This document shows, piece after piece, positions 3,001 to 12,000 of a stretch of 62,354 nucleotides of DNA; within the stretch, counting starts at the first letter, position 1, and every line of letters starts with the position of its first letter. Source of the DNA: a virus (lineage: Duplodnaviria > Heunggongvirae > Uroviricota > Caudoviricetes); IMG/VR virus record IMGVR_UViG_2880412407_000008. One strand, 5' to 3'. The position numbers are program-made.

Positions 3001-6000
3001 ATGCGTCTGGGGAACGGTATGGAAGTTGAGCCGTGGCTGAAGGCGGCTGTGCGCAAAGAATTTGTCGATGATAACCGGGTGAAAGTGAATAGTGACGGTA
3101 ATTTCGTCAATGATTTGTCGGGCAGACGTGGAATATACCAGGCAGGTATTAAAGCCTCATTCAGCAGTACGTTAAGCGGGCATCTTGGGGTGGGGTATAG
3201 CCATGGTGCCGGTGTGGAATCCCCGTGGAACGGGGTAGCTGGTGTGAACTGGTCGTTCTGACCATCAACGAAAAAGCCCACATCTGTGGGCTTTCATGTC
3301 ACCAGGAGCCGCGGCTCCTTTGCGTATCCTTTTATGTCTCTTCACCGTCTGGTCGGTGTCCTGCTGATACTGCTAACTTCCTGTTTTTATTGGTGTTGTC
3401 CTTATACCGTCCAATCATGATTGGTGCTGGGGTCCCTGTAACTAGATATCTATTTTGTTGAATTTTCTAGATAACTGTTGTTTCTGACTTTACCTTTGGT
3501 TCAATAAAGGAACCATAAATCGTAACGGCATGAACCCCTGAAAATAGTCCGTTGGCAAACTGTATCAAAAAATATCAAACCTCTTGGTTCAACTTCCTGA
3601 TGTCATCTGAACTCATTTCATTGGTCTTCCTTTAACATGTCGATTACGTTAGCTACATACATAAAGCCTAACGCCTGTTGGAGATTGTTATGAAAAACTG
3701 GTCAGCTGAGCATACGAGAGAGGTGAAGAAGTGGCTGAATATAGATACATATCGAGGATTCGAAGAGCTTCCGCTTATACACCTCTACCATGAATTGCTG
3801 GCAAGGACATTGTTCTTCAAACCATATCATGAAGAATTTGAAGCAGAAGCGGTCAGACTTTACATTGACCGGATTTTCAGCGGAAAACCGTTTCTTATTA
3901 CAGAACAACATCTTGGATACCTCACAAGAGAAGATACCCTTTACCAGCCACCTCACTTCTATCTGACAACAACTGAAAGACTGGCGCAACTCAGTATTGT
4001 GGGGCTACGAAATTCACTTTTCTTTTGGGAGGGAGGGGATGAGTACTCGGTTAACCGTGAATTCCTTGAAAGCCCTGTATCAGAGTCCCTACCTCGCCTG
4101 TTCAGAGATACTGTCATGGTCGAAATCGACTTGGCGAATGGAACTGACGAGGAAATAGCTGAATCCCTGAAAGCCGCACTACCTCAGTGGCGTAAGGTCA
4201 GAGGTATTGAGGCTGACACTACTGACTCGATCCGCTTTGGTTATGGAACGATTAAGAAAATCATCAACTACAGACTTATACCCCTTATTGATATCTTGGT
4301 ATGGTCAAACTTGCACCAAGTTCGTGTATCCGAAGACCGCCTTTCCCGGCTCCTGTACACGGATGAAGATGATGAAGAACAAACCCGCCTGAACCACCAA
4401 ATCAGGGATACGGACAGACCCCTTGCTCTGAAGGCCGCGAGTATACCGTTCATCCGTCAGTTTCATCTGTTCATCAACAAAAACGACCACCTAAAAAAGA
4501 TCAGAGTTTCAGACGTGATGAAAATCGCTGATTCTGACTAAGACCAACCTCCATTAGCTCTGGCGTTCTCGGCTTCGGTCTTTTTCCTGCTGATTCATTT
4601 ATATAGTAATTCCCATCGCAACTGAAATGAGGAATAAAATATGAATCAGCACAATACTCGCCTTATTCGTTTACCAGAGGTTCTAAATCGAACCGGTTAT
4701 GGTAAAGCGTGGATCTATCATCTAATCAGCAAAGGCTGTTTCCCATCACCAGTCAAAATTGGATCTCGTGCAGTTGCTTTCATTGAAAGTGAAGTAGACG
4801 AATGGATTCAATTAACTATCGAAAATTCAAGAAAGCACGTTGCCTGATTAAATTAACAAAGGCCTTTCTTTGGAATATAAAAAACTGCAATTTACCAATA
4901 ATGTAAAAAATAAATGAATAAAAGGTATGTATATTTTACAGTAAAATTTACAGATTAAAGTTAACTTAGTATTTCTAAGGCTCAGAGGTTAACTGGTAAG
5001 TATTAGGGAAACATAAATAAAACTAGATTCACCTTATATAAGGTGCGAAAATTTTCACTGATACATTATTGATTTCAAACAAAAATAATAAAATTAAAAG
5101 ATATTATTTTTGCAAAAAATAATATCATTGCATATTAATATATATCACCTATATAGAAATGTAAAATTTAAAGGAGATGATATGAGAAAATACAGCGTTA
5201 ATTCTTTTGTTTTTGAAAGTGGAGAAAGGTTTTGCCATGTGATAGATAAAATATCAGGAGAACCTTTATATTATCCAAACCTCTATATAACTACACAGGT
5301 CAGGAACAGATCAAAGTCGATCAACACGATGGAGGCTATTGGTGGAAATCTGGCATTACTATATCGATTTTTTTCTCTCAGGGGAATAGATATAAGAGAG
5401 AGAATAGCTACGTTGCAATTTCTGGATCTTAATGAAATTGATGATTTGGCTGATTTCGCTTCAAAAAACTTCAAAGACAAAAGAACAACATTTTTGCATG
5501 AGCGTAGTGTTGTTAAAGAACCGACAAAATATTTCAGGTTGACCGTTATTATTAATTATCTTGAATGGCTGTGTGAAGTTCACACAATCGGAACTAAGAG
5601 TAAAGATAATCAAAAAATAATGGACAGTTTTATTGATAAGCTAAAAATTAAAAGACCATCAAATGAAAATGGATATAAAAATCAAATCCATGAGAAAACA
5701 TTAAGCAGAGAACAGCTTGATATTTTATTTGAGATAGTCAGACCTGGCTCTGAACTTAATCCTTTTGCTGATGAAGTTCAGTCAAGAAACCGATTGATTA
5801 TATTACTGCTTTTTTCTTTTGGGATCAGGGCAGGAGAGTTGTTAAATCTTCGCATCAGGGATATCGATTTTTCTTCAGGAATGATTGTAATAAAAAGACG
5901 ACCCAATGATAAGTTTGATCCAAGAGTTAATCAACCACTTGTGAAGACTTGTGAGAGAATGTTTTCTGTGGGCAATACATTAATGGCTGAGTTATTTAAT

Positions 6001-9000: not shown

Positions 9001-12000
9001 CGGCAGGTGGGCGCTGGCTCCTGAGCGCCATAAACAGAGCTTTACCTGTCAGCTCTTTTGTCATGCGCTCTCCCATGGCGTAGCCGACAATTTCGCACGT
9101 ATAAACATCTTTGATGCCAGCGAGGTACAACCATCCCTCCTGTGTGGCAACATACGTCAGGTCCGCCACCCAGACCTGATTTGGTGCTGTAGGAGCGAAC
9201 GTCTGGTTCAGCAGATTTGGCGCAACTGGCAGATTGTGGTTCGAGTTCGTAGTCGCTCTGAACTTGCGTTTCTGCTTACAGCGTAGCCTTAGCTCCTTAC
9301 GAAGACGTGCCAGTCGGTCACGACCAACGATGATGCCATTCTCTGCCAGCTCCGTCTGGAGCCGCCGGGTTCCATATGTTTCGCGAGTGCGGATATGTGC
9401 CACCTTAATCTCCAGTTTTAGCCGCTCATCACTTTGTTTTCTGTCTGAGGGTTCATGCTGTACCCAGTTGTAATAACCGCTCCTGGATACACCAAATACC
9501 TGACACATCGCTTCAATGGGAAATTGTTGTCGCCATTGTTCGATTAACGCGTATTTTTCAGCGACTCCTGTGCAAAATACGCTGTTGCTTTTTTTAATAT
9601 ATCTCGCTCAAGGCGAGCTTCATTTAACGCCTTACGCAGTTGCAGAATTTCAGATTCCAGTTCAGCCACCGTGCGGGAACCAGGAGTACCGAGCCCTTTT
9701 CTGGCGGCGGTAACCCATTGTCCTAAAGTGCCTTCAGGAAGAGATAATCGGGAAGCGCCTTCACTGATCGAAAGTTGATTTTCAAGAACCGTTCTGACAG
9801 CTTCGGCTTTGAACTCTTTAGAGTAACGTTGGGTTTTTCTGCTCATTATTAGCTCCTTCTGATGCCATTCTATTTCAGGAAGGAGTGTCCGTTAAACTCA
9901 GGCTACCTCACTCGCCGGATAAATTTTATAGACACTCGCTTTGCCCTGAAGTAAGTGAAGATAAACCCCTTGATGTTATTCAGGTTTGCCACGCGCTTGG
10001 TTATCCACTAAATGATAAGAAGCAATGTATTGAAAAACTGAAGCGCACGAGTCTCGACGGGGGCACTTCGTTCCTGAATCCAAAAGACGGGCATTACACA
10101 CTGAGAAAACTATGGAAAATGATAACTGGATTATTACCTGCGGATTTTCCCTGGTTTGATGAAGAGAAATCAGTGAAATACAGCAATGCATTGTGTCTTT
10201 TGAATCTGCATCAGTGCCATGAGCTGAAAATGACAGTTGATTACGTATTATACAGGCCAACCTATGACTTCTTTACGCAGGATATAGAGAAGGCAAGAAA
10301 AAACAGACAGGTAATGAAAAATATCTTTGCGCGTTACGACTATCTGGATGATTCAGGCAAAGCGTTATATCTGCGTTCTCATCAGCCAAGACATTTGCTA
10401 AACACACTTGCTCATCTCGGTGAATTATCAGAGTTAGATATCGCAAAATGGTCGGGTAGAGTCAGTGTGATGCAAAACCGAGACTACAACCATACTTCGC
10501 AGGAAGAGATGCTTGAAAAAGTCGGGACACTGAAGCTGGGGAATCATCGTTATTGCTACCAGCCCAAGCCTGGTGAGATTCTGCCTGTCGGGACTGGAGT
10601 GTTTAATGATTCAGAGAGTGGGGCTATTCACTTAACACCTCATGGATATTGTATTCACGATTACGTCATCCCCCCTTGCAGGAAATTATCTGAAACCGCC
10701 CATTATGGATGGGTAGGGCATAGCAAAATGAGTGAACAGCAAAGAGAACAAAGCATCAAAAAAATCCGCTCACTTTGGCAAATGGCTAAAGATGCTGTGG
10801 ATGATGATCATTATGGTGCCGATAGATGGGTTGCTCACTACGAAGAAGTGTTGTCCATTTTAGACAAAAAGATCCCGAAAAAAATTAAAAGATAACTTAT
10901 AAAAATTAATGAATTAAATAGGTGGTGATATGGCAAAACATTTAACAAGAAAAGATATAAATAGAATTAAAAGCACCATCCAGGCATGGAATGGTAAGTT
11001 AACATGGGATTCATTATGTGAATCTGTAAAACCACATATTGGAAAGAAACCCACTCGACAGTCATTGAGTATGCACAAAGATATAGTGAATGCATATCTA
11101 TTGAAAAAGGAAAAATTAAAACACGATGAAAATCCTCTTAAAAAACCTGCTAACCTGAAAATTGCAGCACAGAGGATAAAAAATCTGGAAGCGGAAAATG
11201 AAATTCTGAAGAAGCAAAACACCAGATATAAAGAACAGTTTACACTATGGCAGTACAATTCATATAAGTATGGACTTAAGCCACATCAGCTAAATGAACC
11301 TTTGCGTGCAAAAAACGATAATTAAGTAAATTTAATATTACATTCTGTAAATATATTTTTACTGTACTATTGATTTTTAATTTAATGCTGGTATTTATTG
11401 TATATCAGGATGACAAAACAAATTGCAAGGATGCATATTATGGAAAAATTAAATATTAATCTCATGGAAAGGTATCTTCTTCTGCTTGATAGATTTGTGG
11501 ATAAACTTACGCAATCAGGTTTTGAAGAGAAAGAAATTATAGAGAACGCATATCTTTTTTGTGCAGGATTTTATATCAAATACCAAAGTGGTATCGAAAA
11601 AATGACCTTCTCCAACAGGGAGGTTGTTTTAACCTTTCTGCTACTTTCATATTATAGTCATATAAATAAACTGGATGATGATTTGATCAACAAAGAGCGT
11701 ATGAAAAATATATATTCTTCATTGATTAACTTTATAGTCAGTAATGGTAGCCGAACAGAGAAAGTCTATGCTAATGAGAAAAGGAAATATGAGGCTTCAA
11801 CTCTAAAAAGAGAATTATCGAAAAAGGATAAAAGGAAAAGATATGGGTTGTAGTGTTTGTATGATTTTCATTGAACTTACTTAATCTATAGTCTAAATTT
11901 TAATATTAGATTCGTAAATCTATAATTCCATGAATCTAATTAATGCTTAAAAGCATCCTCTAAGATGCTTTTACTGTTACCATGCATACATACCCAGAAC

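Follow-up and report, generated by a model that had tools for sequence, protein, structure and literature searches.

The module between about positions 4856 and 11365 of the window, the 62,354-nt stretch of DNA analysed here, is most probably (we put this at roughly 85%) a broken ginABCD cassette of the GInt type (Tn6571 family) inside the remnant of a mobilizable island integrated at ssrA, both being dead in E. coli O121. The cassette encodes three proteins with a tyrosine recombinase fold, GinA (403 aa), GinB (453 aa) and GinC (628 aa), as well as GinD (131 aa), a small helical or coiled-coil protein. Since the ginABCD architecture has already been described and defines the GInts, the find is real but ordinary. 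In the Pseudomonas GInts all four Gin products are needed together; GInts excise as a circle, re-insert at one specific target, and make staggered cuts of about 6 nt that give rise to short imperfect direct repeats (PMC5385486). In a typical GInt the cargo follows ginD, the 3' end is short and AT-rich, and imperfect direct repeats of 10-17 nt flank the element. GInts are also referred to as Tn6571-family transposons (Hochhauser et al. 2023, PMC10121019). Coordinates of all features are given in Table 1.

Table 1. Features of the gin cassette and its surroundings in the window.
Feature	Position	Strand	Remarks
Left junction of the island array at ssrA	3427..3433		Homology with genomes having ypjA and ssrA adjacent stops, 'ATGATTG|GCTGGCG'
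DUF6387 gene	3690..4541	+	PF19924, E 1e-72; conserved gene at the distal end of the host island, outside gin
alpA	4641..4847	+	PF05930, E 7e-18; AlpA-family HTH protein, putative recombination directionality factor
gin cassette, discrete exchange module	4856..11365	+	6510 bp with IS600; 5243 bp once the IS and one target duplication copy are removed
GTAAA/TTTAC word array	4900..4953		TGTAAA forward, then TTTACAG twice; about -279, -247 and -235 from the ginA start
ginA	5182..6393	+	403 aa, intact tyrosine recombinase; PF00589; XerA/XerC-like matches
ginB pseudogene	6386..7749	+	453 aa if intact; +2 bp frameshift at 6552-6553; Arg342 to Cys
ginC, 5' part	7742..8646	+	Codons 1-301 plus 2 bases of codon 302
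IS600 (IS3 family)	8647..9910	-	1264 bp, inverted ends; annotated IS600 in RM8352
ginC, 3' part	9914..10895	+	Restored GinC 628 aa
ginD	10930..11325	+	131 aa; WP_024174260 listed as ginD orthologue
Right-edge palindrome	11346..11367		CTGTAAA-TATAT-TTTTACTG; candidate core-type recombination site
137-aa gene 'o137'	11440..11853	+	Conserved host-island backbone gene after the gin slot
437-aa protein gene	12249..13562	+	Long (Pro-Glu)n repeat; host-island cargo common to the O157:H7-type island
IS3-family IS (IS629-like)	14007..15220	-	Cuts off the island remnant; followed by the prophage without its left arm
ssrA	61295-61657	-	tmRNA gene

A sequence-only reading of this DNA had taken alpA, three tandem tyrosine recombinase genes and small accessory ORFs for one multi-recombinase element of unrecognised architecture. 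The three recombinases indeed form a single unit rather than a set of unrelated integrases. The four genes ginA-ginB-ginC-ginD (403/453/628/131 aa) are co-oriented and tightly packed, with 8-nt overlaps between the stop codon of one gene and the start codon of the next at 6386/6393 and 7742/7749. More than 150 loci of Gamma- and Betaproteobacteria share this order, which is the same in all related loci. The claim that the module is AT-rich compared to the prophage also stands (GC 29-40% vs about 50%). The architecture itself is not novel: it is the ginABCD operon, and the published list of ginC and ginD orthologues contains the ginC-like and ginD-like proteins of the present element, the O121:H19 copy included (WP_077516586, WP_048990917 and WP_024174260 (O121:H19 16-9255), listed as 'ginC and ginD orthologs' in Idola 2023 Additional file 10).

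All four Gin proteins have homologues that are 33-47% identical and occur in the same order in 'solo' loci, the identities being measured against operons inserted at ssb. In 32 of these loci ginA starts about 140 bp past the stop codon of ssb, which is the canonical GInt target, and one complete E. coli ssb GInt could be resolved with its attB, attL, attR and the direct repeat CCGTTCT. As in GInts, the operon is AT-rich and consists of co-oriented genes for two tyrosine recombinases recognised by Pfam, a large divergent protein with a recombinase fold that is annotated as 'DNA-binding/hypothetical', and a coiled-coil protein of about 130 aa. It differs in that it lies internal to a mobilizable island bounded by tRNA or tmRNA sequence and not at an island's 5' end: in GInts attL is found directly 5' of ginA, whereas here alpA and the DUF6387 gene stand upstream. 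Furthermore, no cargo of its own is evident in the cassette (about 5.2 kb), whereas the published minimum for GInts is 2.5 kb of cargo beyond the operon, and GinC has 628 aa here vs about 670 aa in GInts.

GinA, GinB and GinC each make up their own conserved family with invariant catalytic residues. The first recombinase gene was rightly read as intact, and the catalytic set of its product (R216, K255, H330, R333, W366 and Y376) is nearly invariant, as is that of GinC (R229, K261, H458, R461, R484 and Y493), among 120-122 distinct sequences. The motifs that had been assigned to all three recombinases hold for proteins 1 and 3. Protein 2 lacks H-x-x-R: its family has R-x-x-R throughout, and the present copy carries Cys at position 342. 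What had been described as a 73-aa accessory ORF (6386-6607) and a separate 377-aa gene (6616-7749) are the N-terminus and the remainder of the single 453-aa gene ginB. Compared with intact copies in other E. coli (99.5% identical) it is split by a 2-bp insertion, AT, at 6552-6553, and the small ORF is a frameshift artefact. The substitution of Arg342, which is invariant in 121 sequences, results from a C to T change at 7411. Intact GinB scores 386 bits with NCBIfam model NF041502 (cut-off 350 bits).

The third gene is interrupted by IS600, with a 3-bp target duplication (CTC) at 8644-8646 and 9911-9913. Removal of the IS in silico restores the 628-aa ORF, as had been proposed, and the restored GinC, which has a tyrosine recombinase fold, is 100% identical to the intact E. 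coli protein P0001; a Pfam search with the restored protein gave no match, PF00589 included. The 131-aa ORF at the end of the operon was likewise confirmed. The predicted structure of GinD (pLDDT 84, helices 7-66 and 76-113) has a small helical N-terminal domain and a long coiled-coil helix, and a fold search with this model gave no significant match. Hence two of the four gin genes in the window are inactivated, ginB by the frameshift and the loss of its invariant catalytic Arg and ginC by IS600, and therefore no activity is expected. In E. coli O121 both the gin cassette and its host island are fossils, but E. coli CFSAN061771 and M160133 carry intact cassettes of the present type.

An observation apart concerns GinC as a family. 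In the literature it is described as having no catalytic residues, and its full invariant catalytic signature is at odds with such published statements. Since the R-K-H-R-R-Y set is kept in 122 out of 122 GinC sequences, GInts may use three active recombinases.

The borders of the cassette were obtained by comparative genomics, the approach that had been suggested for defining the ends. Against three other types of gin cassette, homology repeatedly breaks off sharply at 4843-4855 and at 11366-11389. The left breakpoint, seen against islands that have a different gin cassette, directly follows the stop codon of alpA; on the right, backbone homology restarts at 11366-11389 and the cassette ends about 40 bp past ginD, at the palindrome. 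The proposed alpA gene exists but, by sequence homology, belongs to the host island and lies outside the recombinase unit, since homology of the island breaks just past its stop codon. An empty target, with alpA directly followed by o137, was found neither among 80 metagenome DUF6387 loci nor among E. coli genomes, where slots were either occupied by something else or partially deleted, and no flanking imperfect direct repeats were identified around the cassette. When the gin flanks were compared for inverted repeats by a rough exact-seed search, the AT-rich matches obtained were inconsistent, and homology breakpoints and word positions were used in its place. GTAAA/TTTAC words are enriched upstream (312 observed vs 116 +/- 10 in shuffles), with conserved positions in 75 upstream regions, and downstream (77 observed vs 47 +/- 6). 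The words at 4900..4953 are candidate binding sites for Gin proteins. In canonical ssb GInts a TGTAAA is found about 20 nt inside attL. One gin-less locus partly keeps the left array, which therefore possibly represents backbone rather than the end of an element.

The gin slot has a fixed position between alpA and o137 in mobilizable islands that integrate at tRNA or tmRNA genes. In dozens of enterobacterial loci the order P4-Int, DUF6387, AlpA, gin, o137, relaxase, NikA recurs, and the DUF6387 gene adjoins AlpA in more than 100 loci. Complete relatives carry a P4-type integrase, an AlpA-type directionality factor, the DUF6387 gene, a relaxase/NikA pair and defence cargo; AlpA-type proteins act as the recombination directionality factor for the P4-type integrase in such islands. 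A complete island of 16.7 kb at leuX has a 23-bp tRNA repeat at both bounds and encloses the gin operon. In some relatives (leuX, Yersinia) the integrase lies directly 5' of DUF6387, a circular permutation of attP. Despite differing gin cassettes, o137 shares 96.5% nucleotide identity with the O157-type island. The host island resembles EARL (Enterobacterales-associated ROD21-like) and P4-integrase islands in having an AlpA-type factor and then DUF6387 distal to a P4-related integrase, as well as a relaxase, low GC and integration at tRNA or tmRNA genes, a likeness judged from gene content. Unlike those islands, the copy in the window has neither integrase nor relaxase, both of which are present in relatives. 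Integrase, relaxase and cargo of the host island have been lost to the IS629-like element and the prophage.

The initial suggestion, a novel type of transposon with several recombinases that would be either a Tn554 TnpA/TnpB/TnpC system plus one more recombinase or a recombinase-in-trio element, is one that we now consider very improbable. The sizes of 453/628/131 aa do recall TnpA/TnpB/TnpC, as both systems have an ordinary and a very long tyrosine recombinase together with a small accessory protein (about 125 aa) and site-specific insertion, and a weak similarity of GinD to TnpC is acknowledged in the literature (PMC5385486, PMC10214605). This much of the proposed resemblance holds, but the operon with its four genes is the one already published for GInts; it is not a RIT element and very probably not Tn554 plus an extra recombinase. 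Compared by description, Tn554 of Staphylococcus (Firmicutes) has two recombinases where three are found here, and GinC, unlike Tn554, carries an insertion within the protein and is extended at its C-terminus; a tblastn search with GinC against 72,556 plasmids gave proteobacterial hosts and no staphylococcal host among the matches listed. RIT elements consist of three overlapping genes for typical recombinases without a fourth gene (PMC3414803), whereas here a conserved fourth gene, ginD, is never missing, and the third protein, at 628 aa, has no PF00589 match. SE elements likewise have a four-gene core of recombinase-fold proteins and a small coiled-coil auxiliary and are site-specific and gammaproteobacterial, but their non-canonical protein is the second (intA-tfp-intB-srap) whereas here the large divergent protein is the third (PMC10214605), and the proteins of the window occur in the GInt list (file 10) only, none of them being included in the Tfp/Srap list (file 3). 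That three unrelated integrases from separate degraded elements with independent ends became adjacent by chance, in what is after all an integration hotspot rich in IS elements and prophage debris, has a negligible likelihood: identical order with overlapping stop and start codons in more than 150 gamma- and betaproteobacterial loci and the conserved family of each recombinase argue against it, and the catalytic Tyr is present in GinA (Y376) and GinC (Y493).

How the cassette relates to its island is less certain. Hochhauser et al. (2023, PMC10121019) label islands at the same hotspot (ygaQ-smpB) 'IME__GInt' in a supplementary table; we found no analysis of the co-occurrence of GInts and islands beyond this label, no paper analysing nested GInts, and the 2024 GInt preprint is silent on nesting. 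From the conserved GTAAA-word arrays and a terminal palindrome at both cassette edges, we infer that the cassette either still is or descends from a GInt without cargo that has specialised to live in these islands. Our tentative reading, which we hold at somewhat less than even odds, is that a cargo-less GInt lineage is a 5-kb resident of the alpA-o137 slot in P4-integrase/relaxase defence islands across Enterobacterales, with GinC catalytic too; a site-specific transposon would thus have specialised to ride on another integrative element or would have been co-opted by it. Alternatively, o137, the relaxase and the cargo may be the cargo of the GInt itself. A further reading, rather unlikely in our view, is that gin is an integral, co-opted recombination module of the island, for example for a second integration/excision or for multimer resolution, which is swapped by homologous recombination at the borders. 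It would fit the GinC NJ tree, in which the solo ssb operons form one group and the island-associated operons are the remainder; given this grouping a single ancient association is sufficient. The tree does not show the repeated independent insertions into islands that had been expected. It would also fit the fact that o137 moves with the cassette in some comparisons (one 95% block of gin and o137 between loci L003 and L089), the variable slot (filled by a Rep-like and an HTH gene in L166 and by yet other genes in L137 and in L153) and the left word array shared with a gin-less locus. Yet the islands already own an integrase and AlpA, and gin has often decayed in islands that are themselves retained, as in O121, in SCU-124 (ginA frameshift), in L157 (split ginC) and in L156 (ginABC deleted). 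Moreover, the closest relatives outside islands are proven mobile elements and the breakpoints coincide with word arrays like those at canonical GInt ends.

The local weight of the finding is small, the module in the window being a dead copy of a known element. Its identity as a GInt accounts for a set of genes annotated as 'hypothetical / DNA-binding / integrase' next to the ssrA prophage in O121 STEC. It likewise explains the cassette found in that position in O157:H7, which is of another type and intact. The catalytically complete-looking GinC bears on the mechanism of elements with three recombinases and of their Tn554 and SE relatives. Since GInt cassettes sit at a constant position within mobilizable defence islands, they offer a tractable system for studying whether and how an integrative element acts as a parasite of another or is of use to it.

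The three recombinase genes and the small gene behind them are the ginABCD operon that defines GInts, mobile islands with three genes for tyrosine-recombinase-like proteins and one for a small protein. All four gin genes are needed for excision of a GInt as a circle and for its site-specific integration (PMC5385486). For this element's third and fourth proteins, the O121:H19 16-9255 copy included, RefSeq accessions are found among the listed orthologues of ginC and of ginD in the supplement of Idola et al. 2023 and are absent from the list given there for SE elements, the related intA-tfp-intB-srap elements. 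The architecture, not recognised in the sequence-only reading, is therefore a published one; the lead towards Tn554 pointed in the right direction. A GinC profile scan of species-representative genomes yielded 79 loci, and all complete loci encode homologues of the four Gin proteins in unchanged order. In 32 of these, for instance in Escherichia ruysiae and Pseudomonas viridiflava, ginA starts about 140 bp past the stop codon of ssb, the end of which is the canonical GInt target (Bardaji et al.). A complete 12-kb E. coli GInt at ssb has Avs4 aboard, and its attB, attL and attR, with direct repeat CCGTTCT, can be read by comparison with the empty site.

The ginA gene is intact; ginB and ginC have decayed. 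A 73-aa accessory ORF and a 377-aa recombinase had been listed separately; they are a single gene, ginB, present as one 453-aa CDS in 99.5% identical copies of other E. coli. In the window copy 2 bp are inserted at 6552-6553, and there is a C-to-T change at 7411, by which Arg342, invariant in 121 distinct homologues, has become Cys. The proposed reconstruction of a 628-aa third gene, ginC (7742-10895), proved right, as removal of IS600 restores an ORF whose product has an identical, intact counterpart in E. coli. Stop and start codons show 8-nt overlaps between genes 1 and 2 and between genes 2 and 3, and the GC content of the module is 29-40%.

Position of the main features in the window
Feature	Position	Strand or remark
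alpA, clear AlpA-family gene	4641-4847	
GTAAA/TTTAC word array, candidate cis site	4900-4953	inside left border
ginA, first recombinase gene, 403 aa, intact	5182-6393	PF00589 match
IS600, 1264 bp, splits third recombinase gene	8647-9910	target duplication CTC
ginD, 131-aa ORF	10930-11325	after third gene
Palindrome CTGTAAA-TATAT-TTTTACTG, candidate cis site	11346-11367	past ginD, at cassette end
HECT-type E3 ligase, NleL-like, 782 aa	within 52038-60117	
1133-aa protein with CNF1-like C-terminal domain	within 52038-60117	
EspK, 453 aa	within 52038-60117	-
ssrA (tmRNA gene)	61295-61657	-

The window is 100% identical to E. coli O121:H19 genomes such as RM8352 and spans the integration hotspot bounded by autotransporter gene ypjA and ssrA, which are adjacent in many E. 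coli genomes. When the window is compared with this empty site, the first foreign DNA appears near 3427, and the gin cassette lies at the ypjA-proximal end of the island array. The ypjA/EhaD gene (1-3261) is split into several ORFs in O121; the RM8352 annotation gives it as partial, with a frameshift, and lists a beta-barrel ORF separately at 2935-3261. Adjoining ssrA there is a type III effector cluster at 52038-60117, and no integrase was found among the ORFs of at least 150 aa between EspK and ssrA. In the same hotspot of E. coli CFSAN061771 (locus L001), a P4-like satellite with primase-helicase, Icd-like and sid/delta/psu genes (35935-44245) lies past the integrase end of an intact island, in tandem with it.

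Unlike textbook GInts, the gin operons of relatives in Yersinia, Buttiauxella, Pectobacterium, Klebsiella, Salmonella and E. coli are embedded in a conserved island frame, which reads P4-type integrase, DUF6387, AlpA, sometimes a 104-aa gene, ginABCD, the 137-aa gene o137, small genes, a relaxase with NikA-like protein, and variable defence cargo. A complete island of 16.7 kb at leuX of E. coli SCU-124 encloses gin, with a 23-bp repeat of the tRNA 3' end at its borders. In ssrA-type islands the integrase is at the far end and DUF6387-AlpA at the distal end, which is the layout known from EARL islands; there the recombination directionality factor is the AlpA-type gene. Hence alpA and DUF6387 are genes of the host island and stand outside the recombinase trio, to which alpA had been joined in the sequence-only reading. 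Of this island O121 retains only DUF6387, alpA, the gin cassette, o137, the gene of a (Pro-Glu)n-repeat protein and a fragment of a lipoprotein gene, followed by an IS629-like element and a prophage that lacks its left arm. Close to its C-terminus the repeat protein (437 aa, 12249-13562) has an unbroken run of some 45 Pro-Glu repeats, and since the O157-type homologue has 408 aa, repeat length is variable. In E. coli O126:H45 MIN10 (locus L088) a DUF6387-AlpA-gin-o137-relaxase block lies directly past a second autotransporter pseudogene, yejO, again without adjacent integrase, an arrangement that points to recombination between the autotransporter paralogues.

Cassette borders were mapped by setting the window against islands of the same backbone with another gin cassette, for instance the O157:H7 type, in which Gin proteins share only 32-47% identity and the flanks show 87-96% nucleotide identity. 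Homology repeatedly stops at 4843-4855 and restarts at 11366-11389. In 75 distinct loci GTAAA/TTTAC words occur upstream of ginA at conserved distances (312 observed versus 116 +/- 10 in shuffles), at about -279, -247, -235, -70 and -20 relative to the start of ginA, positions common to cassette types without nucleotide similarity to one another. In canonical GInts, too, TGTAAA is present about 20 nt inside attL. The ssb-type GInts have an additional common motif, ACCTnAGA, right after the ssb stop codon.

The sharpness and recurrence of these borders, together with the candidate cis sites within them, namely the word array and a terminal palindrome with the TGTAAA of canonical attL, argue that the cassette is a nested, cargo-less GInt, a reading to which we assign a probability of about 0.6. 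The less likely reading is a co-opted module of the host island, towards which several observations point. Neither an empty slot between alpA and o137 nor direct repeats flanking the cassette were found when looked for, which counts against autonomy. Slot contents vary: locus L166 (11600-12760) holds a Rep-like 291-aa gene and an HTH gene and no gin, and L137 (11860-14800) has other small genes in place of gin. Part of the left word array is kept in a gin-less relative, o137 travels with the cassette in some comparisons, and the GinC tree requires a single switch between operons standing alone at ssb and those resident in islands.

GinA has the canonical R-K-H-R-W-Y set and GinB has R-K-(R)-R-H-Y. 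In 122 distinct GinC sequences, Pseudomonas ssb-type elements included, R229, E232, K261, H458, R461, R484 and Y493 are invariant or nearly so. We infer from conservation that these form the recombinase active-site set; their spacing, the weak hhalign registers of GinC with GinA and GinB, and the GinB-XerA alignment are all consistent with such a mapping. This conservation disagrees with two papers in which the first arginine of GinC, or its catalytic tyrosine, is said to be missing. In the GinD model (pLDDT 84) a long helix comes after a small helical domain, and a fold search with this model gave no significant match.

GInts were reported in 7.5% of Escherichia replicons (Idola et al.) and as carriers of defence systems in E. 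coli, where hotspot 39 corresponds to yjcB-ssb (Hochhauser et al., PMC10121019). The tables of the latter label islands of hotspot 9 'IME__GInt', and this hotspot, the ygaQ-smpB interval, is where the window's island is located. Given these reports and labels, the gin element of the window is real but already described, a pseudogenised fossil. Within the E. coli collection 345 genomes have a GInt at ssb, about 340 the O157-type island cassette and 28 the O121-type cassette. The O157-type cassette (401/437/543/132 aa), found in O157:H7 and relatives, EDL933 among them, is different and apparently intact; it occupies the same slot beside ypjA with flanks nearly identical to those of O121, for example at 17269-21816 of E. 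coli strain 105 (locus L003). In the plasmid collection, relatives of the ssb-type GInt (GinC 41.5% identical) were found on 105 plasmids, the majority being conjugative plasmids from E. coli, Klebsiella and Salmonella. An ssb-ginA query had 189 matching places on plasmids, so ssb genes carried by plasmids may be GInt targets too.
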